Positions 967-15,241 of a stretch of 20,000 bases of DNA are shown here, one piece after another. The stretch is taken from the IMG/VR virus record IMGVR_UViG_3300032164_000005; one strand, given 5' to 3'. This stretch comes from an uncultured virus (IMG/VR IMGVR_UViG_3300032164_000005). Its lineage: Duplodnaviria; Heunggongvirae; Uroviricota; Caudoviricetes. Each line of letters begins with the position of its first letter. Position 1 is the stretch's first letter. The position numbers were made by a program, and so were the translations under genes. Below the pieces are notes generated by a model, which had not been told where the DNA came from, made no database searches, and saw nothing but the letters and a program-made list of their open reading frames with translations.

Positions 967-1014
967 GATTACGGCGTGCGTTTCTTACGTCGCATCGCAT
1001 AGGCCAAGTATAAC

Positions 1015-1947: not shown

Positions 1948-1952
1948 CCGCC

Positions 1953-2129: not shown

Positions 2130-2131
2130 CA

Positions 2132-2160
2132 TTGCTTGTCGGTCCGCAAGCGGATAGTAT
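2132..2160 (+). promoter_or_regulatory. Sigma70-type promoter TTGCTT-17-TAGTAT, leaderless start at ATG 2168
   Basis: -35 at 2132-2137, -10 at 2155-2160, ATG 7 nt downstream. Confidence 0.6.
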
Positions 2161-2167
2161 GCCGCCC

Positions 2168-2452: not shown

Positions 2453-2475
2453 CACGGCTGTGCTATCGAGCACGG

Positions 2476-3078
2476 ATGAACACTCTTCGTTGGCTCTGGT
2501 TCGTCGTGGTTCTGCTCGTCGCGAGTCCTGCGGTCGCACAGCAAGCGAATCCGTGGGGAACGACGACCGATCGTGATGCCGCTCTGATGGTGGCAACGCT
2601 CCTGCATCATTACCCGAGCACTCCTGCTCGAGCATGCATCGAGGCACATCAACTCGAGATCATCGAGCATCTGATGGCCGCCGAGAGGCTCAGCGTGCCG
2701 TCGGGTCTGGCGCTGTCCGTGTCGTTTCACGAGACCCACGTCGGCTGCGATCGGAACGAAGGCGGAGGATGGGGCGCTCCGATCGACATACGGCATCGAC
2801 ACACGGCCGGTACGCCGGAGCACGCGATCCGCGCGCTGCGCCGATCGTTCGAGGTTTGTCACGACTGGGAGGGCGCGGTCAGCAGGTTCCGTTCAGGCCT
2901 CTGCCACCTGCCTCGCGGCGACCGGCGACGCGGGTACGTGCGAAGCGTGCTGCATCTCGCTGGTGTGATCTACCGGGCCGTCGATGGCAACAACCCTCGC
3001 GGGTTCGCGTTCCAGTGGGTCTTCAACCACGAGTGGATCGCGTCGTATCGCGTGGGGCTTCGTCCCGGAGGCGAGTGA
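2476..3078 (+). CDS. Secreted lysozyme-like/lytic transglycosylase-like protein
   Basis: Sec signal peptide (…SPAVA-QQ), LALSVSFHET with a candidate catalytic Glu, and AVSRFRSG…YVRSVL resembling the SLT C-terminal motifs. Confidence 0.6.
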   Translation: MNTLRWLWFVVVLLVASPAVAQQANPWGTTTDRDAALMVATLLHHYPSTPARACIEAHQLEIIEHLMAAERLSVPSGLALSVSFHETHVGCDRNEGGGWGAPIDIRHRHTAGTPEHAIRALRRSFEVCHDWEGAVSRFRSGLCHLPRGDRRRGYVRSVLHLAGVIYRAVDGNNPRGFAFQWVFNHEWIASYRVGLRPGGE

Positions 3079-3230
3079 TGTGTCGCAACGGCTGTACGAA
3101 GCCTGTGGTGGAGGATGACCTGTGCGAAGACTGTCTCGTCGGCGAGCTTGTGGAGTTCGCGGTGAAGTACCGTCGCGAGGAGGATCCCGATCCGCCGGTA
3201 CTGGTCCTGTTCGATCACGGAGGTGAGTGA
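3078..3230 (+). CDS. Small Cys-rich (CxxxC…CxxC) hypothetical protein
   Basis: MCRNGCTKPVVEDDLCEDCL…; TGATG coupling upstream and SD GGAGG. Confidence 0.6.
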   Translation: MCRNGCTKPVVEDDLCEDCLVGELVEFAVKYRREEDPDPPVLVLFDHGGE

Positions 3231-3976
3231 TGCTGGTTCTCGCTGGGAAGCAGATCGAAACGCCGTTCGCGTCCAAGTCATGGCTCGACGACCCGGCGTA
3301 CAGGATCGCGAACGACAAGGCTTCGCGGTCGGCGAACACATGGATTCGCGGCATCACGCTGCACACCACGCACGGAAAGTACCCGCAGCCGATCATCCCT
3401 GGTATGGGCATGCCGGGTTCCGCGCTCGCGAACATCCTGTACTGGAACAGGTCGCCTGCGTACGCCTCGGCCCATCTGCTGCTCGACCAGGACGGCACCG
3501 TGTGCCAGTGCGCCGACCTCGTGACCGAGACGACGTGGCATGCGACGTCGGTCAACCCCATCACGGTTGGCGTCGAGATTTGCCAAGCGGCCGACGGGTC
3601 GTTGTACCAGGGTCAGATCGACGTGGCGGTGAGCTTGTGCGACTGGTTGACGGTGCAGCTTGGCATCCAGCGGCAAGTTCCGCAGGCCTACGCCAACAAG
3701 CCCATCCAGCGGCTTGTGGATGGAGCGCGAGACTTCGTCGGCATCTTCGGTCACCGGGACCAGACGAGCGATCGTGGTCGCGGTGATCCTGGCGACTTCG
3801 TCATGGATGCTCTCGTGAAGGCTGGGTACGAGAGATTCGATCTCGATCGGCTGGAAGACAGGACCGCGTGGCGCGAGCGACAGGCTCGTCTCGGGATCGT
3901 CGCCGACGGTCTCCCTGGGAAGGCCACCGTGGCCGCGCTGAAGTCCAACCCGGACGGGCTGTGGGTGAGACGGTGA
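3227..3976 (+). CDS. N-acetylmuramoyl-L-alanine amidase endolysin (Amidase_2) with a C-terminal PG-binding remnant
   Basis: ITLHTT, SAHLLLDQDG, TWHA…NPITVGVE, IFGHRD and DPG motifs; C-terminal LGIVADGLPGKATVAAL; SD GGAGGTG. Confidence 0.92.
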   Translation: MMLVLAGKQIETPFASKSWLDDPAYRIANDKASRSANTWIRGITLHTTHGKYPQPIIPGMGMPGSALANILYWNRSPAYASAHLLLDQDGTVCQCADLVTETTWHATSVNPITVGVEICQAADGSLYQGQIDVAVSLCDWLTVQLGIQRQVPQAYANKPIQRLVDGARDFVGIFGHRDQTSDRGRGDPGDFVMDALVKAGYERFDLDRLEDRTAWRERQARLGIVADGLPGKATVAALKSNPDGLWVRR

Positions 3977-4239
3977 ACCATCCGGTCGACAAGCAGGGCC
4001 GAAGCGTGAGGCAGGTCGCGCTGCTGAAGTGGTTCGTTCGCAAGAACTACGTGAACCTACCCGACGAGGCGATCAACCGTTACGCCGTCGCGATCTACGA
4101 CTCGCTCAGCGAACTACCCGGTACACGAGGTACGCCCCGCCGATCAGCAGAAGCCAGCCCACAACGTCCACCTCGGTCCGGCCTCGACACCGACGCGGCA
4201 ACAACCCTGGACGACCGCCGCAGCGGCCACGCAGGATAG
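3973..4239 (+). CDS. Hypothetical protein
   Basis: GTGA overlap with the amidase stop; MNHPVDKQGRSVRQVALLKWFVRKNY…. Confidence 0.55.
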   Translation: MNHPVDKQGRSVRQVALLKWFVRKNYVNLPDEAINRYAVAIYDSLSELPGTRGTPRRSAEASPQRPPRSGLDTDAATTLDDRRSGHAG

Positions 4240-4275
4240 GGTTTCGTCGTCGTCTGGTCATGTCTCGGATCGTAG

Positions 4276-4281
4276 TAGAAT
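4276..4281 (+). promoter_or_regulatory. -10 box TAGAAT, leaderless start of the zincin gene
   Basis: TAGAAT 6 nt upstream of ATG 4288; no SD. Confidence 0.55.
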
Positions 4282-4287
4282 CCCACC

Positions 4288-4686
4288 ATGATGTCCCCGT
4301 CGATGCTGCTCACCCTGTTCAACGCGGAGCGGAACGAGTTCGCGAAGTACTTCCCGAAGGCCCGTGAGGCGCAACTGGCGATCTCGAATCGGGAGTGTTC
4401 GATCGGCGGTCGGTGCGGCCTTCGCGATCTTGGGTGGGCCTACGACGGGGATCACACGGTGACGCTCCTGCGTCGGTCGCTGACGCTGCCCGACAACCGG
4501 ATCGTCGGTCTCATTCGCCACGAACTCGGACATCTGGCCGACCCGTACATCAACGAACCAGGGGCGGAGCAGCGGGCCGACGACATCGCCGAGATGGTGT
4601 CCGGCCAGCAGATCCGGTACGATGCAGACGACATCCAGACCGTCGGACGCGGGAAGTACCCGCGTCCCCTCTACCTGCATCGGTGA
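4288..4686 (+). CDS. Minimal zinc metallopeptidase (gluzincin-type)
   Basis: IRHELGH (HExxH) plus downstream EQRADDIA (ExxAD third-ligand motif). Confidence 0.75.
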   Translation: MMSPSMLLTLFNAERNEFAKYFPKAREAQLAISNRECSIGGRCGLRDLGWAYDGDHTVTLLRRSLTLPDNRIVGLIRHELGHLADPYINEPGAEQRADDIAEMVSGQQIRYDADDIQTVGRGKYPRPLYLHR

Positions 4687-4690
4687 CCGC

Positions 4691-4936
4691 ATGGCACGTC
4701 GTCGTCGTCGTCGTCTCAATCCGACAACGCCCGAAGGGGCAGTTCTCGGCACGGCTGCCATCGGCGGTCTCCTCGCGAGCCTGTACTACGCGGTCACGGC
4801 CGTCGGGACGTCGATGAATCCGTCGGAGTCGCGTCGCCGTGCCATGCTTTCGGGCGGCATACTCCTCGGCACGATGACCGTGTTCGCTCTGACCGGCGAG
4901 GCTTCCGCGCGGCGACGCGAAGGGCGCGCGACTTGA
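4691..4936 (+). CDS. RxNP-tagged membrane protein (MARRRRRRLNP…, two predicted TM helices)
   Basis: ATG 4 nt after the zincin stop; hydrophobic segments AVLGTAAIGGLLASLYYAVTAVG and AMLSGGILLGTMTVFALTG. Confidence 0.75.
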   Translation: MARRRRRRLNPTTPEGAVLGTAAIGGLLASLYYAVTAVGTSMNPSESRRRAMLSGGILLGTMTVFALTGEASARRREGRAT

Positions 4937-4976
4937 GACTTGTGCGCGAGGCGAATCGCTGACATATGCTAGCGGT

Positions 4977-5318
4977 ATGCACGCTCGTCGTCTGAACCAG
5001 CAGATCATCGAACTGCTGCCTCCTGCCGTGATCGACACCACGGGGGTCGCGTTGATGGCTCGAGATGCTCACGGCTGCGGACGAGCGCGTGACTGGCTCT
5101 TGGACGGGAGCAGGTCAGACTTCAGCCGCGACTCGCTGAACGTCATCGGGAAGGCCTTGGACTACGCGAAGCAGCACGACGGGCTGCGGCGCATGGTCCT
5201 GGTGATCCCGCAGGCGATGGGTAGGATCGTGGCAAAAGGCCTGCTCACTCACGCGCCGGTCGCGGTCGTGGTGGTCGAGACGCGCGCCGAGGCGCTCAAC
5301 ATTCTGGGGGCACGATGA
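4977..5318 (+). CDS. STAS/SEC14 (SpoIIAA-like) domain protein, putative
   Basis: WLLDGS…GLRRMVLV…VVETRAEALNIL pattern; TATGCT -10 box 6 nt upstream. Confidence 0.5.
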   Translation: MHARRLNQQIIELLPPAVIDTTGVALMARDAHGCGRARDWLLDGSRSDFSRDSLNVIGKALDYAKQHDGLRRMVLVIPQAMGRIVAKGLLTHAPVAVVVVETRAEALNILGAR

Positions 5319-5587
5319 CGAAGGATGAACTGATGGCCCTGCTCGCCGAGATGGACGACGAGATCATCCTGGCGGACGGATTCGAGGATGCTTTCGTCGG
5401 GATCGCCGAGAGGTGCTCGAGCCTGCGCGTCGCGGTGTACGACTACGCCAGGGCCGTCGAGGTGTTGATGAAGCGGGATGGGTCCACGCACGAGGACGCG
5501 GTCGAGTACCTGGACTTCAACGTGCTGGGCGCGTACGTGGGCGAGCAGACGCCCTGGTTCATCACGTACCGGCCGCCGCCGAAGTAG
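5315..5587 (+). CDS. Conserved phage hypothetical protein
   Basis: ADGFEDAFVG…AVYDY…EDAVEYLDFNVLGAYVGEQTP is a pattern I recognise from phage proteins; ATGA coupling. Confidence 0.85.
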   Translation: MTKDELMALLAEMDDEIILADGFEDAFVGIAERCSSLRVAVYDYARAVEVLMKRDGSTHEDAVEYLDFNVLGAYVGEQTPWFITYRPPPK

Positions 5588-5860
5588 TCACCGTCGCGGG
5601 CGTCGCGGATCGACCGTCACCCCTTCGAGGATCATCGGCTGATACCTCGTACCGAACTTCAGTGACCGGATAACCTCGGCCGCATCGACCCTGCTGGTCG
5701 TGAAGATGGACGCGACCTTCTTCTTGCCGCTGTGCGCGATCACCGCGTATCCATCGAGGCCCTTGTACGAAGCGGGGTGGACGCGGAATACCATCGCGGG
5801 TCGTTGTTTGCTCATGGTCGTGATCCTAACAGGGAGACGCCCTGGTTCATCACGTACCGG
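5547..5860 (+). repeat. 26-bp perfect direct repeat agacgccctggttcatcacgtaccgg (5547-5572 and 5835-5860)
   Basis: Read directly; the copies bracket the 5588-5815 gene and its promoter. Confidence 0.9.
5588..5815 (-). CDS. Hypothetical basic protein (MSKQRPAMVFRVHPASYKG…, 75 aa)
   Basis: ATG 5815 is 7 nt downstream of the extended -10 TGTTAGGAT. Confidence 0.7.
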   Translation of the reverse strand: MSKQRPAMVFRVHPASYKGLDGYAVIAHSGKKKVASIFTTSRVDAAEVIRSLKFGTRYQPMILEGVTVDPRRPRR

Positions 5861-6018
5861 TCGTAGCCGGATGCGTGGGGGTGGGGTACGAGAAGAAGAT
5901 GATGTAGACGGCCAGCGCGCCAAGCAGGATCGCTCCTGGCGTCACCTTCTTGCCGGTCAGAATCTGAGAAATGGCGTCTGGATTGGTTCGTCGCCTGCTC
6001 ATGGTCGCGATCCTAACA
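5809..6018 (-). promoter_or_regulatory. Duplicated promoter/start unit TGTTAGGATC(A/G)CGACCATGAGCA (5809-5831 and 5996-6018)
   Basis: 22/23 identity; each copy has an extended -10, a 7-nt spacer and an ATG. Confidence 0.8.
5850..6002 (-). CDS. RxNP-tagged single-TM micro-protein MSRRRTNPDAISQILTGKKVTPGAILLGALAVYIIFFSYPTPTHPATTGT (50 aa)
   Basis: Translated by hand (below the ORF-track cutoff); has its own extended -10 promoter, an Arg-NP N-terminus and one TM helix. Confidence 0.75.
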   Translation of the reverse strand: MSRRRTNPDAISQILTGKKVTPGAILLGALAVYIIFFSYPTPTHPATTGT

Positions 6019-6207
6019 CGGCATCCAGACGGCCTCGACGCCGTCGGTCGTGAAGCCAGATGCCACCAGGACGCCCCGGAACGCCTCCGGGAAGGCCCGG
6101 ACGACCACGCGGCGCAGGCGTCGCCCCCGGTAGGCGAAGGCGACCCGTGCGCCCGCCTGCATGGCCTGCTGGAGGATCGTGAGGATGTGTTCAGGGCAGT
6201 GCAGCAT
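6013..6207 (-). CDS. Hypothetical protein
   Basis: MLHCPEHILTILQQAMQAGARVAFAYRG…; continues the minus-strand cluster; start uncertain. Confidence 0.45.
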   Translation of the reverse strand: MLHCPEHILTILQQAMQAGARVAFAYRGRRLRRVVVRAFPEAFRGVLVASGFTTDGVEAVWMPC

Positions 6208-6586
6208 CGTCCACCTCCACATCGTCCATCTGGGGGCGCGTCCCCTGGGCCCCGCCGGGCATGTCGTCCAGGGCCGCCGCCCTTCTCTCGTAGAGCGCGT
6301 CGTACTCCTCCTGGGTCACCTTCCTCGCGTCCGGGCTAGCAGGCGCGACGGCAGCTTCCTCGATCTGACGGATCGCGGCATCCAGGTACGGGCGCACCCA
6401 GGAGTCCAGGAAGAGGCGCAGCGGTGACATCCGGTCGGTCGAGTGCAGCAGTTCGCGTAGCTCGTCGGACAGGCGCGTCGGGTCATTCAGGTGCTCCTGC
6501 GCCTTCTTGAGCAGGCCCATGATCTGGTAGTTGATCTTGAGCTTGGGGCGCGCGTGACCGCGCCCGTTGCGAGGAGTGCGTCTCAT
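6191..6586 (-). CDS. Hypothetical helical protein
   Basis: ATGA-coupled to the upstream gene; coding-like codon usage. Confidence 0.7.
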   Translation of the reverse strand: MRRTPRNGRGHARPKLKINYQIMGLLKKAQEHLNDPTRLSDELRELLHSTDRMSPLRLFLDSWVRPYLDAAIRQIEEAAVAPASPDARKVTQEEYDALYERRAAALDDMPGGAQGTRPQMDDVEVDDAALP

Positions 6587-6777
6587 GTCCCTGCTCCGTG
6601 TGTGGTCGTGACGTGGTCGTGGATGTCGCCTGACGACGTCGTGGTGTAACCACAGTCGCACCGATACGACACCGCCGTGTGTCCGCCCGTGTTCTCGGGG
6701 TGCCAGAAGTCCGCTGTGCGGTCCTCGAACTCGACCACGGCGCGGGCTTCCTTGTTTCTGAACTCACGACGGTTCAT
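6583..6777 (-). CDS. Small C2H2-type zinc-finger protein
   Basis: YRCDCGYTTTSSGDIHDHVTTTH; ATGA coupling. Confidence 0.7.
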   Translation of the reverse strand: MNRREFRNKEARAVVEFEDRTADFWHPENTGGHTAVSYRCDCGYTTTSSGDIHDHVTTTHGAGT

Positions 6778-6995
6778 GTCGTCGCCACCTTTCCTGCTGC
6801 GAGGAACGCCTTGAAGTCCGTGCGGAACTTCTTCCACACGAACTGCTGGCACCGGCACCCCTTCGCGATGCAGGGCCCTTTGCCTTCGCCCATGTGCAGA
6901 TCCCGGTGCATGGACACCGGGCCGTCGCCCCTGTGCCCGCACTGGCACAGGCTCTTCGGGCCATCGAACTTCATCGCCTCGAGTACGGTCATCAT
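6774..6995 (-). CDS. Small Cys/His-rich protein
   Basis: CQCGH…H…C…CRCQQF; strong SD AAGGAGG. Confidence 0.75.
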   Translation of the reverse strand: MMTVLEAMKFDGPKSLCQCGHRGDGPVSMHRDLHMGEGKGPCIAKGCRCQQFVWKKFRTDFKAFLAAGKVATT

Positions 6996-7025
6996 CGCGA
7001 ACCTCCTTCGTGGTACAACTGGGTC

Positions 7026-7142
7026 ATGCGCAGGAAGCGAAGACGGAACCCGGACACCGGACCCGCAGGATGGCTTCTCGCCGCGACCGTGCTGATCGTG
7101 ATCGTGGGCTTCGCCGTCGCTCCTAGCGCCCCGCCTCGCTGA
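7026..7142 (+). CDS. RxNP-tagged single-TM micro-protein MRRKRRRNPDTGPAGWLLAATVLIVIVGFAVAPSAPPR (38 aa)
   Basis: ATG 6 nt after TGGTACAAC; lone plus-strand gene inside a minus-strand cluster; Arg-NP N-terminus plus TM helix. Confidence 0.7.
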   Translation: MRRKRRRNPDTGPAGWLLAATVLIVIVGFAVAPSAPPR

Positions 7143-7326
7143 TCTCGATGTGCTCCATCAGCATCGCCTGCTCCAGGCCCATCACGGTCCGCTGCCCACA
7201 CGCCGGGCAGGGATACCCCTCGGCATCGGGCTCGGTCTCGCTCCGTGTGATCTCGTTGCACGCGGTGCAGTACCCCGCGTACTCCTCGGTGCCCGCGTAG
7301 TACGCATCGCTGGTCATCACGATCAC
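7123..7326 (-). CDS. Zinc-ribbon protein
   Basis: CTAC…EPDA…CPACG; GTGA overlap with the ArdC-like stop; SD GAGGAGG. Confidence 0.75.
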   Translation of the reverse strand: MIVMTSDAYYAGTEEYAGYCTACNEITRSETEPDAEGYPCPACGQRTVMGLEQAMLMEHIEISEAGR

Positions 7327-8243
7327 GCCGCTACCTCCTCGGCGACCTTCTCGGACGCCTCGCCCCCGACGTTCAGCGCGTCGAGGATCGTGTTCGCGGC
7401 CTTCACGATCCGCTCGCCCACGCGGGCGATGATCTTCGTGGCCGGGTCGCCGCCGTTCTGCGCCCAGGTCGCGACGTAGGGGAACGAGTAGCACCCGGTG
7501 TCCAGGCCGAGGGCGTGCGAGACGATGAACGCCACGCTCTCTGCCTCGACCTCGCACACGGGGCGCTCGTGGCGCTCGTCGGACCCGTGGAGCAGAGAGT
7601 GCGCGACCTCGTGGACGAGGGTCTTGAACTGCTCCGCGCGGTTGCGACCGCCGGTCACGATCACGATCTCGCGTGACAGGCGGGAGTACCAGCCCTTCGC
7701 GCCGCCGCCGAATTCCGTGTCGGTCTCCTGGAAGCGGATCGCCGAGACGGGCGCACCCTCGAGTCCCAGGGCGACGTCGCGCAGGCGCTCGATGGACTGC
7801 TCGAACACCTCGGGCGCGTCGATGCGCGGCAACTCTTTGGACTCAGGGAGGGGCTCGCCGTCGGTCTGGCTGACGTCGAACACGGACACGACGCGGAACC
7901 GCACGCCCTTGAGCGTCTCGGTGGTCTCGATGCCCTGCGCGTCCGTACGCTTCACGTCGCGCTTGAACGGCACGGGGGCGAGGATCGCGTGGCTCTTGGC
8001 ACCGCGCACGACGTGGCGGTTCACGGACAACCACGTCTTGAACCCTGCGACGGCGCGCATGTCCGCGCCCTGGCTGATCAGGAGTAGCTGGTTCGCGAAC
8101 GAGTAGCGGCGCGGCGAGAGCTTGCCCAGGGTCGCGCTGGCGGTCAGCACGGCCTTCCAGTCCTCGTCCGTGTTGAGCGCCGCGAGACCGCGCTGCAGGG
8201 CTTCCTGCGCGGCCTTGACCCTGTCTGTCGTCTCGTTCGTCAT
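7323..8243 (-). CDS. ardC: ArdC-like ssDNA-binding/antirestriction protein with a C-terminal ImmA/IrrE-like metallopeptidase domain
   Basis: YSFANQLLL…VAGFKTW…VVRGAKSHAILAP…VFDVSQTDG N-domain; TLVHEVAH, EVEAESVAFIV and SFPYVATW; start 8243 follows SD GGAGG. Confidence 0.85.
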   Translation of the reverse strand: MTNETTDRVKAAQEALQRGLAALNTDEDWKAVLTASATLGKLSPRRYSFANQLLLISQGADMRAVAGFKTWLSVNRHVVRGAKSHAILAPVPFKRDVKRTDAQGIETTETLKGVRFRVVSVFDVSQTDGEPLPESKELPRIDAPEVFEQSIERLRDVALGLEGAPVSAIRFQETDTEFGGGAKGWYSRLSREIVIVTGGRNRAEQFKTLVHEVAHSLLHGSDERHERPVCEVEAESVAFIVSHALGLDTGCYSFPYVATWAQNGGDPATKIIARVGERIVKAANTILDALNVGGEASEKVAEEVAA

Positions 8244-8528
8244 CGTCGTACCCTCCACTGGGTCAGACGGCTGCCTACTGTGATTATTCTCGGAAATCGT
8301 AACCGATGGGAATACCGTTCGATTTTGTCGCTGCCGGATATCAGGCCGGGCTCGGATATCTGGCCGGGCTACCCGCCGGGGCCGGGATATCCGACGAGGG
8401 CTTTCCCCGTACGGCATCGCGCTCACGCGCGAGGTCACCGACAGAAAACGACGGTATTCCCATCGGTTACGATTTTGTAGAATATACCCAGAAGGGCTGC
8501 GTCTGACCGTGTGGAGGGTGTGACGATG
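8241..8528. repeat. Imperfect ~90-bp inverted repeat forming divergent promoter/5'UTR units, with a 25-bp perfect core
   Basis: aaatcgtaaccgatgggaataccgt (8294-8318) is the exact reverse complement of 8451-8475; both arms continue to agaata…gtctgacc..gtggagggt..gacgATGacg. Confidence 0.9.
8335..8391. repeat. Tandem 18-bp repeat cggatatc(a/t)ggccgggct x2 plus a third GATATC
   Basis: Copies at 8335-8352 and 8353-8370; GATATC again at 8386-8391. Confidence 0.8.
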
Positions 8529-8852
8529 ACGCAGACGACGACGATCGAGTGTCTGGAGTGCGGACGGCGCGACGCGGATCGCATGCTGACCCTGCGCGAG
8601 CAGGGCCAGACCGAGGGCGGCTGGGAGTTTCCGGTCTGCGCGCAGGACGCAAGCCGCGTGATCGGCCAGTGGTACGCCCACACGCACGGCGCGGTTCGCC
8701 AGCACGTCCTCGCGACGGGCGACGTGGTCGAGGGGCGCTGGATCAGCCGCGAGGCGGTGCTGGCGCTCAGCAAGCGTGGGATCTGGTTCGCGGGCGGGAC
8801 CATCATCGACGATGGGGCGATCGAGACTGTCTACCGTGGGAGGACGCGATGA
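8526..8852 (+). CDS. Hypothetical protein with N-terminal CxxC
   Basis: SD GGAGGG; MTQTTTIECLECGRR…. Confidence 0.75.
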   Translation: MTQTTTIECLECGRRDADRMLTLREQGQTEGGWEFPVCAQDASRVIGQWYAHTHGAVRQHVLATGDVVEGRWISREAVLALSKRGIWFAGGTIIDDGAIETVYRGRTR

Positions 8853-9334
8853 GCACGATGTTCGAGACCTCGATGGCCCGGTCCGGGCAGATCACCGTGA
8901 CCGCATGGCTCGACCCGATCCTCGGCGTCGTCACCGTGCAGCACGGCACCCGCGTGACCAACCGGATCCTGGTCGGTCGCCGCGCACCGGACTGGTCGGT
9001 CCGAGAACTGATCGCCTCGGCGATCGGCTGTGGCGTCGGTGCGGTAGGCGCACGGATGGACGACGACTCGTGCGACCAGTGCGGTCGCCACGTCGATCGG
9101 TGCCAGTGTCCTGCCGAGGACGACGGCGGCGACGCCATGCTGTCCGTCGAGACCGCGCTCGGGCTCGCCGAGACGCTGCGGTCGGACGGGCTGCGCGCCG
9201 AGGTGCGTGGCGACTCGATCGTGTTCGCGGGCGGCGCGTACGGAGAGCACTCGCTGTACATCCCGGTCTCGAGCAGGGATCGCGTGATGGCGCACTGGAA
9301 CGGGTACGTGACCAACAACGGCAGGAGTCTGTGA
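8849..9334 (+). CDS. Hypothetical protein (internal CxxC…CxC)
   Basis: ATGA coupling, SD GGAGG; MSTMFETSMARSG…. Confidence 0.7.
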   Translation: MSTMFETSMARSGQITVTAWLDPILGVVTVQHGTRVTNRILVGRRAPDWSVRELIASAIGCGVGAVGARMDDDSCDQCGRHVDRCQCPAEDDGGDAMLSVETALGLAETLRSDGLRAEVRGDSIVFAGGAYGEHSLYIPVSSRDRVMAHWNGYVTNNGRSL

Positions 9335-9588
9335 TGAGCCTTCAGGCGTACTATCAGGACTTCTGCCGGGGCTTCTGGGCGGATCCCGACGCGCGAGAGT
9401 GCGCGTGCCGTGGGTCCGGTTACGCCCTCTCGGACGTCGATACGTGGCACAAGTGCCGCTACCACCACGTTTCGGGGCAGCCGCACCCGGAGGACGAGCC
9501 CGTGCGGGACGAGGCCGCTGACGATCGGTCCGAGGCGGACATCGAGGCGGCACACCGGCAGGCGAACGACATCAACGGCGCAGAATGA
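9334..9588 (+). CDS. Hypothetical Cys/His protein
   Basis: TGATG coupling; CACRGSG…DTWHKCRYH…PHPE. Confidence 0.75.
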   Translation: MSLQAYYQDFCRGFWADPDARECACRGSGYALSDVDTWHKCRYHHVSGQPHPEDEPVRDEAADDRSEADIEAAHRQANDINGAE

Positions 9589-9599
9589 GGAGCACGACA

Positions 9600-10049
9600 A
9601 TGCTGTACACGATTGCCAACAAGATTTCTGGGCTCCGCCTCGGCACCTACACCGCGCCAACCAGCGACGCCGCGCTCGACGCACAGGCCCGTGACGCGGG
9701 CTACGCAAACCGCGCCGACATGCTCTCGGTGATCGGCGGCGACGGATCCGACATCTCGGTCGAACAGACCGAGATCATCGTGTACGTCGCTCCCGACACC
9801 CTCGGCACGGACGCGGCCTACCCCGAGGCTTTCGCCCGTTACGCCGAGGAGCGCCTCGCGACGATCTACGCCGGGGCAGAGATCACTGTGGAGATCGGCG
9901 AGGGGTGCGACAGCGTGCCTGACGGGGACGAGCGCGTGATGCAGGATCTGTGGGACAGCTACTGCGGGCTCACGAACCACGACTACGAGATCCTCGCGCT
10001 CGCGGTCCCCGAGGACCGGCGCGCGGGCTACCTCACAGGGATCGAGTGA
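9600..10049 (+). CDS. Hypothetical acidic protein
   Basis: SD GAGGAG; MLYTIANKISGLRLGTY…AALDAQARDAGY. Confidence 0.8.
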   Translation: MLYTIANKISGLRLGTYTAPTSDAALDAQARDAGYANRADMLSVIGGDGSDISVEQTEIIVYVAPDTLGTDAAYPEAFARYAEERLATIYAGAEITVEIGEGCDSVPDGDERVMQDLWDSYCGLTNHDYEILALAVPEDRRAGYLTGIE

Positions 10050-10061
10050 GCAAGTGAAGCT

Positions 10062-10092
10062 CCGGGTTGCAGGGTACGTTCCTGCAACCCGG
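10062..10092. other. Intergenic 12-bp perfect hairpin
   Basis: ccgggttgcagg-gtacgtt-cctgcaacccgg; no U-tract. Confidence 0.75.
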
Positions 10093-10125
10093 CACGACCA
10101 GTTTGCAGGAGACACGGAGGTTCAC

Positions 10126-10356
10126 ATGGACACGGGGTACGAGATCCAGAAGCTCGATCGGCGCACCTGGGTGACCGTCGCTCGCGGCGACGACCTGGAA
10201 CGTCTTACGACCAAGGCTCTGAAGATCGCGAAGCAGGATCGCACCGACGTTCGCGTTCGCGACTACGGCAAGGTGGTGGTGTTCACGGCGTACCGCGACG
10301 GGGCCTACAGCGGCCGTCGCGCGCCCGACGCCGACTTCGGCGACGGAGAGGGATGA
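10126..10356 (+). CDS. Hypothetical protein
   Basis: SD GGAGG; MDTGYEIQKLDRRTWVTVARG…. Confidence 0.75.
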   Translation: MDTGYEIQKLDRRTWVTVARGDDLERLTTKALKIAKQDRTDVRVRDYGKVVVFTAYRDGAYSGRRAPDADFGDGEG

Positions 10357-10561
10357 GACCGATGAATCACGCTGAACTGGCTACGAGCGCCCCGACGGCG
10401 TTACAGGCGCGTTCGAGTGCGTAGCCGAGGATGACGACGGAGTTCTCGGCGGTGCTGGCTGCGAGTGCATGAAGTTCAAGAAGGCGCGCAACCCAACAAC
10501 ATCGAGCCCGAGTGATCCTCGCGCTTTCGGCGTTCAGGGAGTGGTGGTAGCCTCCACCATC
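10353..10561 (+). pseudogene. Probable disrupted Cys-rich gene remnant running in frame into the next gene
   Basis: The ATGA-coupled ATG at 10353 closes after 23 codons, while a start-less frame from 10376 reads TGYERPDGVTGAFECVAEDDDGVLGGAGCECMKFKKARNP (compare CRCQQF in 6774-6995). Confidence 0.35.
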
Positions 10562-11626
10562 ATGCCCTACGCCACCCGAGTGAACCCGTTCGTCAGCCCA
10601 GCCGACCGCAAGAAGGTGCTGATGGCGCTGTTCAAGAAGTTCAAGTCCATGGGCGACGGCAAGGTGATCAGCGGTGGCAAGCACAACGTGATGCTTGCGA
10701 CCGAGGGCTACCGCACCGTGACGCTCGAGACGCTGCCGGACGACGAGATCCTGCGTCTCGCGCGCAAGCACGGCATCCTGCGGAGCGCGGGGGAGACGCG
10801 TGAGAATCCTGCTGGCCGTTCCGTGGCCGACGATCTTCGCAAGATGAAGGTCGGGCAATCACAGGCTCTCGCGGCCCCTCACTTCTCGGTGACACGGCAC
10901 AGCCGGACGTCGTGGGTACTCTTCGACTCGAGAAACCGTGAGCGCGCTCGGTGGGGTACGGCCGTTCAGATCGCCGAGGACATCAGGCATGTGGATCAGC
11001 ACGGCACTCTGCCGCCTCCGTCCGGCGCTCGCTGGAACCCGATCACCACGACGCAGGGCCGCCGCCTCCGTGCGAAGGGTTCGAAGCGTCGGAGCGCGGG
11101 GGAGACGCGTGAGAATCCTGCTGGCCGTTCCGTGGCCGACGATCTTCGCAAGATGAAGGTCGGGCAATCACAGGCTCTCGCGGCCCCTCACTTCTCGGTG
11201 ACACGGCACAGCCGGACGTCGTGGGTACTCTTCGACTCGAGAAACCGTGAGCGCGCTCGGTGGGGTACGGCCGTTCAGATCGCCGAGGACATCAGGCATG
11301 TGGATCAGCACGGCACTCTGCCGCCTCCGTCCGGCGCTCGCTGGAACCCGATCACCACGACGCAGGGCCGCCGCCTCCGTGCGAAGGGTTCGAAGCGTCT
11401 CGCCGGGCGCTTCCTGGCAGCACGTCGCGCGATCGAGGCCGAGGGCGGCGTGCCGAAGGCCCGCGTCGGCCGCATGAGCTACCAGAGCGCGGCGTACATC
11501 CTCGCGCACGGCAAGAAGACGAAGAAGCGCCGCCACACGGTCGTGCGCGGCGCGGAGCACGCTCGTGAGCGGCCCGAGAGCGACGTCAACGTCTGGGACT
11601 GGATCAACAAGACCTTCGGGCACTGA
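10562..11626 (+). CDS. Basic modular protein with five RxNP motifs (candidate polyprotein)
   Basis: MPYATRVNP…GETRENP…ARWNP…GETRENP…ARWNP…; TGGTAGCCT -10 box 8 nt upstream; alternative start 10469 (MKFKKARNP). Confidence 0.8.
   Translation: MPYATRVNPFVSPADRKKVLMALFKKFKSMGDGKVISGGKHNVMLATEGYRTVTLETLPDDEILRLARKHGILRSAGETRENPAGRSVADDLRKMKVGQSQALAAPHFSVTRHSRTSWVLFDSRNRERARWGTAVQIAEDIRHVDQHGTLPPPSGARWNPITTTQGRRLRAKGSKRRSAGETRENPAGRSVADDLRKMKVGQSQALAAPHFSVTRHSRTSWVLFDSRNRERARWGTAVQIAEDIRHVDQHGTLPPPSGARWNPITTTQGRRLRAKGSKRLAGRFLAARRAIEAEGGVPKARVGRMSYQSAAYILAHGKKTKKRRHTVVRGAEHARERPESDVNVWDWINKTFGH
10781..11398 (+). repeat. Exact in-frame 309-bp tandem duplication (10781-11089 and 11090-11398)
   Basis: No differences seen between copies; the ORF track shows identical duplicated translations. 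Confidence 0.95.
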
Positions 11627-11632
11627 GGCAAC

Positions 11633-11872
11633 ATGAAGATCGAATTCAACAGCGTGGATACGCTCGAGCACATCATCAGCCGCAGTCTGAAGGGGTTCAA
11701 CGCCAGGGTGACTCCCGTCCGTTCCACCAGGGGCGTGGCCGTCGAGATCCAGGGCGTGGCCGCCTACGACTCCCGATCGATAAACCTCTTCGTCAGGGAG
11801 ATCGACAAGAGCGGAGTGGCGCACGGTCCGCCGTTCAACCTGCGAGTGAAACCGTCGATCTTCATCTTCTGA
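11633..11872 (+). CDS. Hypothetical protein
   Basis: SD GAGG; TGATG coupling to the next gene. Confidence 0.75.
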   Translation: MKIEFNSVDTLEHIISRSLKGFNARVTPVRSTRGVAVEIQGVAAYDSRSINLFVREIDKSGVAHGPPFNLRVKPSIFIF

Positions 11873-12147
11873 TGAGCCCGCCGGAGATCACGTTCCGCGC
11901 GGCGAGCATCGCTGACCTCGAGAGCAAGATCGCCGCCTACGAAGTGCTCTTTGATGTCGTCCCATGGGTCGGCGTCGAAGGCACCGTTACCGCGTCCGAC
12001 GGCGACCCGGCGTGGCTCAGCAAGCCGCACCAGATCGTGGCCGTCGGCCGGAAGTTCGTCACCGTCAACCTCGGGGTCGAGGGAGCGTTCCGCATGGACG
12101 TCGAGAGGAACGCGAACGTGGCTCGGTACGCACTGAGGGCACGATGA
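11872..12147 (+). CDS. Hypothetical protein
   Basis: Translationally coupled on both sides. Confidence 0.7.
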   Translation: MSPPEITFRAASIADLESKIAAYEVLFDVVPWVGVEGTVTASDGDPAWLSKPHQIVAVGRKFVTVNLGVEGAFRMDVERNANVARYALRAR

Positions 12148-12851
12148 CTCCGCTCGTCTCCTGCATCTGCCTGACGACATGGCCCCGCCGTCGGGCGTAC
12201 CTGCCCGACGCGCTGCGTTCGTACCGCCAGCAGACGTACCCGGAGCGCGAACTCATCGTCGTGAACGACGGTGAACCGCTCGTGTCGCACGCGGCCGACG
12301 TCGCCGTCGTGAACCTGCCCGACGTCGGCCGGAAGTGGACGATCGGCGAGAAGCGCAACGTCGGCGTCCGCAAGGCTCGAGGCACGTACCTCGCGACCTG
12401 GGACGACGACGACGTCTCGATGCCGGATCGTCTGGCCGTCCAGGTGGATGCCGCGCGACGCTGGGGTGCCGACTGCGTCCTGGCCGACAAGATGCTCGTA
12501 GCCGACGAAGACATGCACCTCCTGGGTGACTGCGACAGGGGTCTCGTGAAGCCGGTACAGCCGTCCGCGCTCACGCGCCGAGACGCCGTGATCGCCGTCG
12601 GCGGATACCCGGTCTCGAACTACCGCGAGGACGCCGAGGTCGTTGAGCGGATCAAGCTTCTGCTACGTGGCGTTGTCACGACGATGCCGGGCTCGAACTG
12701 GTACGTGATGCGTCGGCACGGTGGCAACACGGCGACCGGGGACAACTCGAGCTACGCGATCTGTGCCATGCGGTCGCCGGATGTGGTTGAATACCAGCGC
12801 AGGGTCGATGCCATCAGGAGCGGGCCCGGCGGAGAGAACGTGACGCCATGA
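12144..12851 (+). CDS. Glycosyltransferase family 2 (GT-A)
   Basis: PLVSCICLT…QQTYPERELIVVNDG…GEKRNVGVRKARGTYLATWDDDD…PDRL. Confidence 0.93.
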   Translation: MTPLVSCICLTTWPRRRAYLPDALRSYRQQTYPERELIVVNDGEPLVSHAADVAVVNLPDVGRKWTIGEKRNVGVRKARGTYLATWDDDDVSMPDRLAVQVDAARRWGADCVLADKMLVADEDMHLLGDCDRGLVKPVQPSALTRRDAVIAVGGYPVSNYREDAEVVERIKLLLRGVVTTMPGSNWYVMRRHGGNTATGDNSSYAICAMRSPDVVEYQRRVDAIRSGPGGENVTP

Positions 12852-13222
12852 GACGCAGAAGGAACCCGTCGTCGGCCCGCACCCGGAACATCGTTCGCGG
12901 TGCCCAGATCGGCGGCGTCGCAGCACTGACGGTGCTCGTGATCGACAGCGTGATCTCGAGGATCCCCGCGTTGAACGGGAGTAGCTTCGTTCGCGGCATC
13001 ACACGCCTTGCGGCCGGTGGCGGACTCGCCTACCTCGCCTCGGCCCGCAAGACGATCCCCGACATCGTTCCGCAGGGCATCGTGGGGGGCGCAGTGCTGA
13101 TGACGGCCCTGGACGTAGGAACGAGCCTGATCTCGCGCCCTGCAGGGCTCCCTGCCCTCCCTGGACCTGCCGCTGCGGTGCTGGCGGCCGGGCAGCCGTG
13201 GCCCCCGCAACTGATGGCGTGA
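12848..13222 (+). CDS. RxNP-tagged membrane protein (MRRRRNPSS…, 2-3 hydrophobic Gly/Ala-rich helices)
   Basis: ATGA/TGATG-coupled between two GT genes; IGGVAALTVLVI, LAAGGGLAYLA and IVGGAVLMTAL segments. Confidence 0.8.
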   Translation: MRRRRNPSSARTRNIVRGAQIGGVAALTVLVIDSVISRIPALNGSSFVRGITRLAAGGGLAYLASARKTIPDIVPQGIVGGAVLMTALDVGTSLISRPAGLPALPGPAAAVLAAGQPWPPQLMA

Positions 13223-13956
13223 TGCTGATGCCCGCTGTGGTCACGGCGGTCTGGCACGGCGATCCGCAGCGAGAGCAACTGCTGCGCGATCACGTCGCCA
13301 ATTTGGCAAGGCAGACGATCCCCGTCGAAGCGATCTACGTCTTCGACGGAGGCGATCTGCCGCCGCCCTGGTTGAAGGCTCGCGCTGTGTGCGTGAAGGA
13401 ACCGCTGACGATCTACCAAGCGTGGAACGTCGGACTCTCGCTCGTTGGCGCATCCGTGGTGATGAACCTGAACCTCGATGACCGGCTGGCTCCCAACGCC
13501 GTCGAGGTCATGCAGCGGGCGCTGCTCGGATCGGATGCGGTCGCGATCGGCGGTGATTGGAAGGTCTGCTACTCGCAGCGCGACACGGACAACGTCCAGC
13601 CGGTCTACCCAGCGACGCGTCTGCCCTTCGTGAGGGCGTGGCCTCCGCCGCAAGGCGCGTTGACCCGGCTGGGCAGCGGGACGGGCGATCGTGGCACCTA
13701 CGGGCCCGCGACGATGTGGCGCACGAGCCTGCACCTGAGTCTCCCGCGCTTCCCGTGGAGGGCGGCCGACGGAACGCTTCTGAGGGTCGTCGGCGATCAG
13801 GCGTGGTGGATCCTGATCACCGAGCACCTGCAGCAGAAGATCCTCCGGCTGCCGCTGGTCGTCGGGAACTACTACAGCCACCCGAGCGGGCAAGCGGAGT
13901 TCCGCTCGGGCGACGAGTCCAAGCTCCTTGTGAACCCTGGAATCTCGCTGATGTGA
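13222..13956 (+). CDS. Glycosyltransferase family 2-like (GT-A)
   Basis: LARQT…IYVFDGG…TIYQAWNVGL…VMNLNLDDRL. Confidence 0.82.
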   Translation: MLMPAVVTAVWHGDPQREQLLRDHVANLARQTIPVEAIYVFDGGDLPPPWLKARAVCVKEPLTIYQAWNVGLSLVGASVVMNLNLDDRLAPNAVEVMQRALLGSDAVAIGGDWKVCYSQRDTDNVQPVYPATRLPFVRAWPPPQGALTRLGSGTGDRGTYGPATMWRTSLHLSLPRFPWRAADGTLLRVVGDQAWWILITEHLQQKILRLPLVVGNYYSHPSGQAEFRSGDESKLLVNPGISLM

Positions 13957-13981: not shown

Positions 13982-14839
13982 ATGGCGTGCCGACCGAACC
14001 CGTACCATTCTCACCGAGGCTTGAAGCAGGATCTGGAGCAGTACCTGGAGAAGGCTGGAGTCTTCGCCGAGATCAAGCAGCGACGCGATGGCGTTGTTGA
14101 TGTCAAATCGCCCTACCAGTCGATGAAGCCGGAGACGGTTCGCGGCATCCTGAAGATCGCGAAGCGGCATCGGTTCCTGGCGGATAGCCCGAAGAGGGTG
14201 AAGGAAGAGATCAGGGCAGGCCTTCATCCGCTCGACCGCGCTACGGGTCGCCACGAAGACGAAGGATGGCTTGAGTCCCACAGCCGTCGCGTCGTCGTGC
14301 TCAGGCCGCCCACCGAACGCACTCGCGGCGTTCCGTCGCCGAGCATCTTCTCGGTCGGATCGACGCACGAACTCGAGGAACTGGCCGGGCGGCATGTGGG
14401 CCCATTCGACCCCGGCGAGTACGGCGACGAGCCCGAGTACGGCGACGAGGACGTCTACGACAACCCCAGCTTCAAGCACACCGCCCGCTACGCCGTCAGG
14501 AAGGGCAAGCGGACCGTGAGCTACCACCGCAGCTACTCGCTCGCCCTGGCGGCCCGTCGGCGCGCCGGGAAGGGCGCAACAGTCGTCGATCGGAAGAGCC
14601 TAGCGCGAGAGAACCCGACGAGCGGCATCGATCGCATGCCCGGCGAGACCCGCGAAGCCGCCGCGAAGCGGATGTCGATCCACGCATGGGACAAGGGTTG
14701 GCAGAGCGCGCACGAGAGGGCCATCCGGGCGTGGCGCGAGGTCGAGAAACACTCCAGCAGTCCGGCGAAGCGCCGCGCTGCTCTCGCGATCATGCGAACG
14801 CACGCCAAGCACTCGGGCGGGATGATCATCAGGGCGTGA
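13982..14839 (+). CDS. Basic modular protein with RPNP, YDNP and RENP motifs (candidate polyprotein)
   Basis: SD GGAG and upstream TGATACCGT -10 box; MACRPNP…VYDNP…LARENP…. Confidence 0.8.
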   Translation: MACRPNPYHSHRGLKQDLEQYLEKAGVFAEIKQRRDGVVDVKSPYQSMKPETVRGILKIAKRHRFLADSPKRVKEEIRAGLHPLDRATGRHEDEGWLESHSRRVVVLRPPTERTRGVPSPSIFSVGSTHELEELAGRHVGPFDPGEYGDEPEYGDEDVYDNPSFKHTARYAVRKGKRTVSYHRSYSLALAARRRAGKGATVVDRKSLARENPTSGIDRMPGETREAAAKRMSIHAWDKGWQSAHERAIRAWREVEKHSSSPAKRRAALAIMRTHAKHSGGMIIRA

Positions 14840-14999
14840 CCTGGATCCCGACCAGAAGTCGCTCGAGGTGGTCACCTTCGTGATGACCGACCAGACGATC
14901 CGCGAGGGCGGCGTTGCCGGGCCAACGTACGCCGCGCAGCCGTGGTTCCGTTCGTACGCGACACAGTTCGTCGCAGCCGTGGACAGGGCCTGCCGCTAG
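14835..14999 (+). pseudogene. Start-less coding-like frame (RDLDPDQKSLEVVTFVMTDQTIREGG…ACR*), possibly a frameshifted tail of 13982-14839 or a short gene
   Basis: GC3-rich codons; its TAG interlocks (CTAG) with the convergent stop at 14996. Confidence 0.4.
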
Positions 15000-15241
15000 C
15001 GTGGGCGCTTCACGGTCGGGCGGCGCGGCTTACGCTTCGGCTTCTGACGTTCCGCCCGTGCTTGATCCCGCATGTCCTTCAGCAGAGGCATGAGGGTCTC
15101 TGCCCATGACGGAGGCTTCGGTGCCGACGCTGCCGCTGCCATCACGGCGAGCGACTTCGCGATGGACTCCATCGCGTCGGTGAACCGTTCCTCGACCGTC
15201 TTCGGTCTCGCCTTCAACGCATCTTTCATCGTGACGGACAT
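14996..15241 (-). CDS. Hypothetical protein with basic C-terminus
   Basis: TGATG coupling; MSVTMKDALKARPKTVEERF…. Confidence 0.75.
   Translation of the reverse strand: MSVTMKDALKARPKTVEERFTDAMESIAKSLAVMAAAASAPKPPSWAETLMPLLKDMRDQARAERQKPKRKPRRPTVKRPR

Follow-up and report, generated by a model that had tools for sequence, protein, structure and literature searches.

An Arg-run-Asn-Pro module heads five small, predicted membrane-protein ORFs of an uncultured phage

Introduction

Why would several small and otherwise dissimilar ORFs of one phage genome begin with almost the same peptide? The question is raised by a stretch of 20,000 nt from an uncultured virus (IMG/VR record IMGVR_UViG_3300032164_000005), called the window below, in which a sequence-only reading had picked out four short ORFs starting with a run of arginines and Asn-Pro and continuing into a hydrophobic helix. 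The positions and translations given for the four are correct and each does contain a hydrophobic helix; a fifth ORF of the same design, E, is added here.

ORF A, 4691-4936, plus strand: 81 aa, MARRRRRRLNP; helices at 17-35 and 51-69, a second NP at 43-44, charged C-terminus (...ARRREGRAT)
ORF B, 5850-6002, minus strand: 50 aa, MSRRRTNP, one hydrophobic helix (20-38)
ORF C, 7026-7142, plus strand: 38 aa, MRRKRRRNP, one strongly hydrophobic helix (16-32)
ORF D, 12848-13222, plus strand: 124 aa, MRRRRNP, three predicted helices
ORF E, 4106-4261, minus strand: 51 aa, MTRRRRNP...VVGWLLLIGGAYLVYRVV; the module, a 23-residue linker rich in Arg, Gly and Cys, and one hydrophobic helix (residues 31-49)

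The module and its expectation by chance

The six-frame translation of the window contains five matches to the pattern [RK]{3,}.?NP, and these are ORFs A to E. All five stand one or two codons past an ATG, and all five are followed by a hydrophobic helix, defined as a 17-mer with a Kyte-Doolittle mean of at least 1.6 within an ORF of at least 30 codons; the hydrophobic segments, of which each ORF has at least one, span 17-19 residues. Across 300 dinucleotide-preserving shuffles the window yielded on average 0.39 matches, of which 0.02 were start-adjacent; no shuffle (0/300) combined a start-adjacent match with a hydrophobic segment after it. The module can be written as Met, zero or one residue, three to six Arg or Lys, zero or one residue, and Asn-Pro, and it heads five small, predicted membrane-protein ORFs within 9 kb.

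The absence of evident similarity among the transmembrane segments, which the sequence-only reading had pointed out, is confirmed. The best local alignment outside the module (A with B) was matched by 7 of 300 shuffles and, being the best of 10 pairs, is unremarkable, and a profile of the family of D gave no match to A, B, C or E at E<=10. Since A to E are not paralogues, the module is attached to different proteins. As judged from their sequences, A to E are most likely real small membrane proteins with a selected N-terminal module.

Start signals and gene status

By exact look-up, A, B and D occur in public protein collections, and C and E are absent from them. The exact A protein is found on three contigs, with one R75L variant, and the exact B protein on five, with no other homologue found. 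Further indications come from -10-like hexamers: TANNNT lies 6-8 nt before only 10 of the 1245 ATG or GTG codons of the window, and six of these ten are predicted gene starts. B and E both have such a hexamer exactly 7 nt before the ATG.

6009-6018, minus strand: extended -10-like box TGTTAGGATC, whose hexamer, TAGGAT, ends 7 nt upstream of B's start codon
4269-4281, both strands, within the 26-bp gap 4262-4287: two back-to-back -10-like hexamers from the TANNNT scan, TACGAT (4269-4274, minus), 7 nt upstream of E's start codon, and TAGAAT (4276-4281, plus), 6 nt upstream of the ATG at position 4288

B has the orientation of its neighbours and occupies the gap 5816-6012; an identical copy of its box, at 5822-5831 on the minus strand, precedes the ATG at 5815 with equal spacing. 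The minus-strand genes 6774-6995 and 7123-7317 leave a gap of 127 nt, in which C lies antisense; with the 3' end of the second, convergent gene C shares 20 nt. Neither a TANNNT box nor a Shine-Dalgarno sequence precedes C: the -10-like box that had been assigned to it is TACAAC, which does not have the final T. The idea that C is an inserted cassette likewise finds no support: repeats do not flank it, and a clear promoter is missing. The gap's minus-strand RNA shows no more folding than shuffled sequences do (z = -0.18). C was also considered as a candidate type I toxin, a small hydrophobic peptide whose mRNA is overlapped by an antisense RNA; it has 38 aa, is hydrophobic and shares its 3' end with the convergent gene. 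E overlaps ORF 3973-4239 of the plus strand in antisense, at that ORF's 3' tail, and the codon score of E is indecisive (-0.11 per codon). Its Arg/Gly/Cys-rich linker is of a kind typical of off-frame translation of GC-rich DNA.

Support for expression is weakest for C and E. It could be argued that only A, B and D are genes and that C, E or both are chance ORFs in GC-rich DNA, as their absence from public protein collections, the missing start signals of C, and the overlap and codon score of E would suggest. However, a start-adjacent motif occurs in 2% of shuffled windows, and in none of the 300 together with a hydrophobic helix, so that two chance copies are very unlikely. In addition, the TACGAT of E has the 7-nt spacing of the TAGGAT of B, C and E share the unusual Arg codons described in the next section, and without C the 127-nt gap in a densely packed gene cluster would have no explanation. 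We regard chance origin of C or E as improbable.

Selection on the peptide

The module is selected at the protein level and not at the DNA level; the codons differ among the five runs. Of the 22 arginine codons in the runs, 19 are the non-preferred CGT, CGA, AGA or AGG; a set of 22 longer genes has these in 130 of 349 cases (37%), and the binomial p for the runs is 3e-6. The pentanucleotide AACCC occurs 36 times on both strands of the window, about 20 being expected, and this excess is largely due to in-frame Asn-Pro, with 19 AAC-CCN codon pairs within the listed genes.

One could also explain the Arg run chiefly by selection on nucleotides for a 5' coding end that is poor in GC and unstructured, which matters most on leaderless mRNAs; the peptide would then be a by-product and not itself selected. 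In favour of this, the 19 codons are rare or poorer in GC, GC makes up 53-63% of the first 30 nt of A to E in a window of 65% GC, and B and E look leaderless. This would leave the proline (CCN) and the constant Asn-Pro after the run unexplained. Moreover, the module is absent from four of six leaderless-type genes, three of the five tagged genes are not of that type, and the same peptide recurs in divergent members of the family of D in other phages. Such an origin of the module is very unlikely.

The three-helix family of ORF D

D overlaps a neighbour at either end: its ATG the stop codon of a GT2 glycosyltransferase gene (12144-12851), its 3' end the following ORF, 13198-13956. A profile search of 1.84 billion representatives returned 35 proteins at E<=1e-3, 15 of them at E<=1e-10. 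With a significant profile match over the three helices and the conserved residues (D33, R38, R49, R53, D89 and a C-terminal PP...G-x-P-W-x-P), D belongs to a previously unnamed family of predicted three-helix membrane proteins, so far seen only in metagenomes. A GtrA-like flippase, which has four helices, was considered for D because the glycosyltransferase gene adjoins it, and was rejected: no Pfam family matches D at E<=0.01, AF2 predicts three membrane-length helices, and the 33 family members gave only chance-level matches at E<=0.1. Searches of A to D against PHROGs and Pfam found no family at E<=0.01, holins included, and the 33 family members gave matches to three holin PHROGs, one member each, at E of 0.023-0.066 only.

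The sequence-only reading had named loss of Asn-Pro in homologues as an observation that would speak against it. Asn-Pro is in fact kept in the 61%-identical homologue of D, which begins MKRRRRNP, and three distant members also retain a basic run with NP. In the alignment of 33 members, five have the basic run and NP, nine a basic N-terminus without NP and 19 no basic N-terminus. The five NP-bearing members are scattered over the tree, which needs four changes, at least two of them forced by well-supported branches. The residues past NP are not conserved.

A proposed topology and anchoring device

The reading that we prefer, at a probability of roughly 45%, is that Arg-run-Asn-Pro combines a polycationic cytoplasmic tail with a helix N-cap and serves as a portable device which anchors a small membrane protein and fixes its N-in orientation. 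The Arg/Lys run would form the tail on the cytoplasmic side, and Asn as N-cap and Pro as first helix residue would end it with a signal for helix start; a preference for Asn as N-cap and for Pro as the residue that opens the helix is textbook knowledge, reportedly described by Richardson and Richardson in 1988. Proteins of 38-124 residues are too short for much co-translational targeting, and a tail that holds the N-terminus on the cytoplasmic face would leave the following helix N-in. The phage lineage would have added the module repeatedly to different membrane proteins, whose individual jobs may differ: D stands among glycosyltransferase genes, A and E lie on either side of a gene for a small HExxH protein just past the lysis genes, and B and C lie in a minus-strand cluster. 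It is from sequence and models that we infer membrane insertion, N-in topology and every function of A to E.

In the AF2 model of D, built with 33 sequences (pLDDT 85.4), residues 1-6 are coil and helix 1 starts at Pro7. The single-sequence model of A has helices at 14-40 and 44-80, the second starting from Pro44, right after Asn43, and the first from Pro14, three residues past the first NP. These helix starts are predicted, and by a program that has itself learned which residues are preferred as N-cap. Several observations count against the topology reading. The RRR in the inter-helix loop of A conflicts with a simple N-in, loop-out arrangement. The 19 of 33 members of the family of D without a basic N-terminus dispense with the supposed device. 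Finally, a plain topology device would be expected to be widespread, and the module looks rare: when 80 IMG/VR and 120 prokaryote loci with ATG-(CGN)4-AAY-CC were examined, the motif ran into a hydrophobic ORF in two of the former and two of the latter, and most matches were non-genic.

A possible recognition tag

Alternatively, Arg-run-Asn-Pro may be a shared address or recognition tag, read by some factor of the phage or its host, be it for sorting, a protease or a lipid or nucleic-acid partner, and used by the phage to co-regulate, localise or process several unrelated proteins. The same heptapeptide-like start on five unrelated proteins and its repeated gain or loss in the family of D would fit this, and the motif extends to other proteins of the window.

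10469-10495, plus strand: looser instance MKFKKARNP, N-terminus of a 385-aa basic, non-membrane ORF (10469-11626) with five internal R-x-N-P
13982-14002, plus strand: looser instance MACRPNP, N-terminus of a 285-aa ORF (13982-14839) with an internal ARENP

That the motif is not confined to membrane proteins would point to recognition more than to topology. Two large proteins are enriched in internal R-x-N-P sites. Among the remaining 37 proteins of the window, ten NP have R or K within the two preceding residues, where 1.5 are expected (0/1000 shuffles). Elsewhere, MRRRRNP heads a soluble-looking family of 92 aa at 9 of the 80 IMG/VR loci, which were chosen by the pattern itself and so give no evidence of enrichment, and RR(R)NP is repeated in three to five tandem copies in a 228-aa protein of the phage genomes L121 and L122 (16.7 and 18.2 kb, with terminal repeats).

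A small HExxH gene beside A and E would also be in keeping with a tag. The gene 3227-3976 codes for an amidase-type endolysin; E lies 130 nt downstream of it on the opposite strand, and A starts 715 nt downstream with two genes between. Between E and A is the conserved HExxH (zincin-like) gene 4288-4686, which is divergent from E and ends 4 nt before the start of A. Against Pfam its product stays below threshold (SprT-like, E = 0.025, 14.8 bits vs a cut-off of 25.6), and no small ORF with the module accompanies its only relative, which lies on a 137.5-kb IMG/VR contig. Any partner is hypothetical, and neither the variable residues past NP nor the pattern-based choice of IMG/VR loci helps the case. 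We consider a recognition tag of this general kind possible, if doubtful. Its most specific form, in which Met-(Arg)n-x-Asn-Pro is a portable address tag of this uncultured phage lineage, read by a dedicated factor (the HExxH protein being one candidate) that sorts or processes the proteins or times their removal, with R-x-N-P as the minimal internal form, is unlikely.

The type of phage

The source is probably an uncultured tailed phage of 65% GC from sediment metagenomes. The window does not reach the genes for capsid and packaging, by which a PRD1/PM2-like lipid-containing phage (double-jelly-roll capsid protein, FtsK/HerA-type packaging ATPase) would be told from one with an HK97-type capsid. 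The sequence-only reading had proposed that ORFs of this type encode virion-membrane proteins of a lipid-containing phage, with the Arg tails binding packaged DNA. A polycationic tail beside a membrane anchor is how a DNA-facing membrane protein might be expected to look. The genomes of known membrane-containing dsDNA phages of bacteria measure 10-20 kb, a range that includes L121 and L122 with their RRNP-repeat protein. But the contigs that carry the proteins of the window reach 73-75 kb, the DnaQ-like exonuclease has 294 matching phage records whose hosts include Streptomyces, Mycobacterium and Gordonia, and the nearest ESM-Atlas clusters of D are labelled Uroviricota. The five genes are also scattered among lysis, early and glycosyltransferase genes and form no structural module, and L121 itself has tail-fibre-like PHROG matches. 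A lipid-containing virion is thus unsupported, and we hold this explanation to be highly improbable.

Comparison with known systems

In the holin/antiholin pair of phage lambda, S105 and S107, the extra N-terminal positive charge of S107 keeps its N-terminus cytoplasmic. The ORFs described here are likewise small phage membrane proteins by prediction, A and E follow closely on the lysis genes, and A, with its two helices, ends in a charged C-terminus. Unlike the lambda proteins, they have four to six charges in place of one, an invariant Asn-Pro and no dual start, and three of the five lie far from the lysis genes. The single-gene lysis protein L of the ssRNA phage MS2 also has a basic N-terminal part followed by a hydrophobic part and is very small; here, in contrast, a dsDNA phage has its own amidase-type endolysin and the architecture occurs in five copies. 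Consecutive N-terminal arginines ahead of a hydrophobic segment recall Tat signal peptides (S/T-R-R-x-F-L-K, h-region, A-x-A). This identity was rejected: N-P, L-N-P or T-N-P follows RR, F-L-K is absent, 8-25 polar linker residues precede the helix, and C ends six residues past its helix, so that there is nothing to export. The bacterial small single-helix membrane proteins treated in the passages of PMC12648545 are similar in size, single helix and charge-set orientation; those passages describe no module of this kind, one that is stereotyped and repeated, stands on five unrelated proteins within 9 kb, ends in Asn-Pro and is kept in some distant homologues.

Concluding remarks

Phages encode many small membrane proteins, most of which have no annotation and many of which escape gene callers; two of the five tagged ORFs (C and E) are absent from a collection of 15 billion proteins. 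A short recognisable N-terminal module would help to find such genes. A new family of predicted three-helix membrane proteins has been defined as well, with D in a glycosyltransferase gene group. If the module is a topology device, it would be a clean natural example of how orientation is fixed in very short proteins; if it is a recognition tag, phages would be found to encode a sorting or processing signal of a new kind.

Occurrence of the module

The sequence-only reading described four micro-proteins that begin with an arginine run and Asn-Pro, and their coordinates and translations proved exact. The six-frame scan of the window with the pattern [RK]{3,}.?NP gives five matches, not four, and the fifth is a 51-aa ORF that reads MTRRRRNP...VVGWLLLIGGAYLVYRVV. 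The carriers of this N-terminal module (Met, at most one residue, three to six Arg or Lys, at most one residue, Asn-Pro) are as follows.

4691-4936, plus strand: ORF A
5850-6002, minus strand: ORF B
7026-7142, plus strand: ORF C
12848-13222, plus strand: ORF D (124 aa)
4106-4261, minus strand: ORF E (51 aa)

Each of the five matches stands one or two codons past an ATG and is followed, in an ORF of 30 codons or more, by a hydrophobic segment. In 300 dinucleotide-preserving shuffles the pattern occurred on average 0.39 times, 0.02 times next to a start, and in none of the 300 was a match next to a start followed by a hydrophobic segment; five start-adjacent motif ORFs are far beyond chance. Because the codons differ between the runs (CGT six times in A, AGA CGA CGA CGA in E, AGA CGC AGA AGG in D), the runs are not copies of one DNA element, and a DNA-level repeat or recent duplication is ruled out. 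The pentamer AACCC is found 36 times on the two strands together, where about 20 would be expected; 19 of the 36 are in-frame Asn-Pro in listed genes.

The transmembrane segments had been described as dissimilar, and this was borne out: with the module removed, no pair among the five aligns above expectation (the score of the best pair, A-B, is equalled in 7 of 300 shuffles, with 10 pairs tested). Since, in addition, a profile of the family of D finds D alone among all window ORFs, paralogy of the five is ruled out and the module sits on unrelated proteins. A reading of the module as a Tat signal was discarded.

Genomic context

The window DNA looks phage-like, with a GC content of 64-69% throughout. 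Four genes have recognizable products, and most of the remaining ORFs have no counterpart in PHROGs or Pfam.

3227-3976: Amidase_2 endolysin
7323-8246, minus strand: ArdC-like protein
12144-12851: GT2 glycosyltransferase
17282-17809, minus strand: DnaQ-like exonuclease

The stretch 272-3976 is a lysis-type gene group, no member of which has an Arg-run-NP start; its further members include the following.

272-526: membrane protein
523-966: ORF resembling a lipoprotein gene, with a lipobox-like LPVSSC
310-aa protein that weakly matches PG_binding_1
2476-3078: secreted-looking protein

When the window was compared with 50,697 phage records by megablast, the sole match was a 63-nt stretch in the exonuclease gene. 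The exonuclease itself matches 294 phage records, none of which reaches 60% identity; first among them is an uncultured 485-kb phage, and Tunturiibacter, Gordonia and Streptomyces phages come next. With ORF 1015-1947 as the query, tblastn against phages found nothing, the search for relatives of the ArdC-like protein gave just two distant loci, both metagenomic, and no related loci were found in viral contigs for ORF 13198-13956 or for alignments A1 and A3, or in genome contigs for A1. Public contigs that carry window proteins reach 73-75 kb. The window stretch is contained in 16 sediment-metagenome sequencing runs, with no RNA run among the holders listed; contigs from four of the runs, placed on the window, are short, of low depth and mostly identical or unrelated, and no substitution pattern for the small ORFs is readable from them.

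The four proteins first noticed had been taken for virion-membrane proteins of a lipid-containing phage or, alternatively, for host-membrane effectors. Because of this genomic context, namely the contig sizes and the many phage records matched by the exonuclease, we consider a lipid-containing virion very improbable.

Gene status of the tagged ORFs

Arginine codons in the five runs are non-preferred CGT, CGA, AGA or AGG in 19 of 22 cases, whereas their share in 22 longer genes is 37% (p = 3e-6), and this choice supports real starts for the five. Nucleotide-level selection on the 5' end probably has a share in the codon choice, although it cannot account for Asn-Pro.

D is clearly a gene: the stop of the GT2 gene and its own ATG overlap, a homologue shares 61% identity with it, and among 1.84 billion representatives its profile finds 35 proteins at E<=1e-3, of which 15 reach E<=1e-10. 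Its 3' end is overlapped by the 252-aa ORF 13198-13956, for which sequence searches brought up no match in Pfam, PHROGs or the PDB and no relative in IMG/VR. A and B are both present in public protein collections, and homologue searches with them bring up nothing beyond the two proteins and a variant of A that differs at one residue; C and E are in no such collection, and none of A, B, C and D has a match in PHROGs or Pfam.

The start of A lies 4 nt past the stop of the upstream gene. B has the orientation of its neighbours and is preceded by TGTTAGGATC (6009-6018, minus strand), with a TAGGAT hexamer that ends 7 nt before the ATG; an identical TGTTAGGATC box stands at 5822-5831 (minus strand), at the same spacing, before the ATG of the next gene at 5815. 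E has TACGAT, as in B 7 nt before the ATG. TANNNT at such a spacing is the architecture expected for leaderless mRNAs. In the window it stands 6-8 nt ahead of just 10 of 1245 ATG or GTG codons, and 6 of 40 listed predicted starts (272, E, 4288, 4977, 5815 and B) have it at 6-7 nt. E and the gene at 4288 face away from each other, both of their hexamers (4269-4281) falling within a 26-bp gap. Three points speak against E as a gene: its overlap with the 3' tail of ORF 3973-4239, an indecisive codon score and its absence from the protein collection. C, which has neither a TANNNT box nor a Shine-Dalgarno sequence upstream and is absent from the protein collection, is the weakest of the five as a gene; in its favour, it occupies a 127-nt gap within a tight minus-strand cluster. 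An RNA structure in that gap was ruled out, there being no unusual fold.

The family of D and the conservation of Asn-Pro

The alignment of the family of D comprises 33 sequences and leaves out an N-terminally truncated protein, a 301-aa fused form and a 481-aa protein. The family has three helices, with conserved charged residues inside them (D33, R38, R49, R53 and D89), and a conserved C-terminal PP...G-x-P-W-x-P. It matches nothing in Pfam or PHROGs, the model of D has no Foldseek match in PDB or BFVD at E<=0.001, and tblastn of D against phages gave none. For ten members the clusters were inspected; these ten stem from short metagenome contigs and lack an informative name, and the nearest ESM-Atlas clusters of D are viral, labelled Uroviricota. 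The profile was also run on 401 genomes per phylum in three phyla centred on the Nocardia, Terriglobales and Variovorax records, where it gave 1, 0 and 1 marginal matches (E about 2e-4), inside long ORFs.

Asn-Pro is kept in homologues in part only. A basic run followed by NP begins 5 of the 33 members (MRRRRNP, MKRRRRNP, MRSKRNP, MRSKRRLRSARSNP and MKRRRRVRNNP), nine have a basic N-terminus without NP, and 19 have no basic N-terminus. NP thus follows in 5 of 14 basic N-termini, which we infer to be far above the level of a random dipeptide. On the maximum-likelihood tree the five NP members require four changes, at least two of them forced by well-supported branches, and they cluster no more tightly than shuffled labels (100 of 500 shuffles are as low). 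Because they are scattered on the tree, the module is not a character of the family; it is an addition, with repeated gains or losses, although start-codon calls may hide it in some cases.

The motif beyond the five ORFs

Two longer window proteins have related N-termini.

10469-11626: 385-aa ORF beginning MKFKKARNP
13982-14839: 285-aa ORF beginning MACRPNP

The 37 other predicted window proteins contain 18 NP against 6.8 expected, and 10 NP with Arg or Lys at most two residues before against 1.5 expected; neither excess was reached in 1000 within-protein shuffles. Eight of these ten are R-x-N-P in the two ORFs listed here, two of them owing to a perfect tandem duplication. That duplication (10781-11399 in ORF 10469-11626; 309 bp, 2.0 copies, 100% identical) doubles a 103-aa unit with two R-x-N-P sites and may be recent or an assembly artefact. 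Residues 35-155 of the first ORF align weakly with residues 2-102 of the second (E = 0.096), both segments beginning at R-x-N-P, and the two may be distant paralogues that flank the glycosyltransferase group.

A scan of IMG/VR for ATG-(CGN)4-AAY-CC gave at least 117 stretches, of which 80 were examined; this count and that for prokaryote genomes are lower bounds and are not comparable with each other. The matches examined in both are mostly non-genes. Because the motif runs on into a hydrophobic ORF at just 2 of the 80 IMG/VR loci and at 2 of 120 from prokaryotes, a tag joined to a helix, as found five times in this window, is not common in phage or bacterial DNA. Nine of the 80 loci (L004 401-679 and eight more) belong to a 92-aa phage family that starts MRRRRNP. 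This family weakly resembles the untagged window protein 5315-5587 (phrog_13182; 28% over 79 residues, E = 0.016), as if the tag stood in place of that protein's own N-terminus. Two further loci, L121 (855-1484) and L122 (about 14700-15400), lie in phage genomes that look complete, measure 16.7 and 18.2 kb and have direct terminal repeats; the protein they encode, of 228 aa (range about 210-230 aa), has 3-5 tandem RR(R)NP[IV][GA] repeats ahead of a hydrophobic region rich in Gly and Ala, and it matches no Pfam or PHROG family. Among the matches listed, literature searches for RR(R)(R)NP gave only unrelated papers, and titles and abstracts on phage small membrane proteins mention no such module.

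The presence of the motif on non-membrane proteins, its tandem repetition elsewhere and its general rarity would suit a shared recognition tag, which we regard as unlikely. One candidate reader of such a tag is the 132-aa protein 4288-4686, encoded between the tagged ORFs E and A, which contains HELGH (HExxH) and shows a sub-threshold Pfam similarity to SprT-like zincins. Its one relative, 53% identical and encoded without synteny in a 137.5-kb IMG/VR contig, keeps HELGH; however, that locus has no tagged neighbour, and nothing ties 4288-4686 to the tag.

Possible role of the module

In the confident AlphaFold2 model of D built on the 33-sequence alignment (pLDDT 85.4), the chain is coil over residues 1-6 and enters helix 1 at Pro7, with further helices at 46-66 and 73-95. 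When A is modelled from its sequence alone (pLDDT 76), helix 2 begins at Pro44, directly after Asn43, and helix 1 at Pro14, three residues past the first NP. By analogy with reovirus mu1, spontaneous or autocatalytic cleavage could conceivably take place at Asn-Pro. By classical preference, Asn is an N-cap and Pro occupies the first helix position. Given these preferences and the modelled helix starts, the simplest picture is that the module would be a floppy polycationic tail with a helix start at its end. Tentatively, and with a probability of roughly 45%, we favour the module as a topology and anchoring device: the cationic tail would be kept in the cytoplasm and, together with the helix cap, would fix the N-in insertion of very short proteins.
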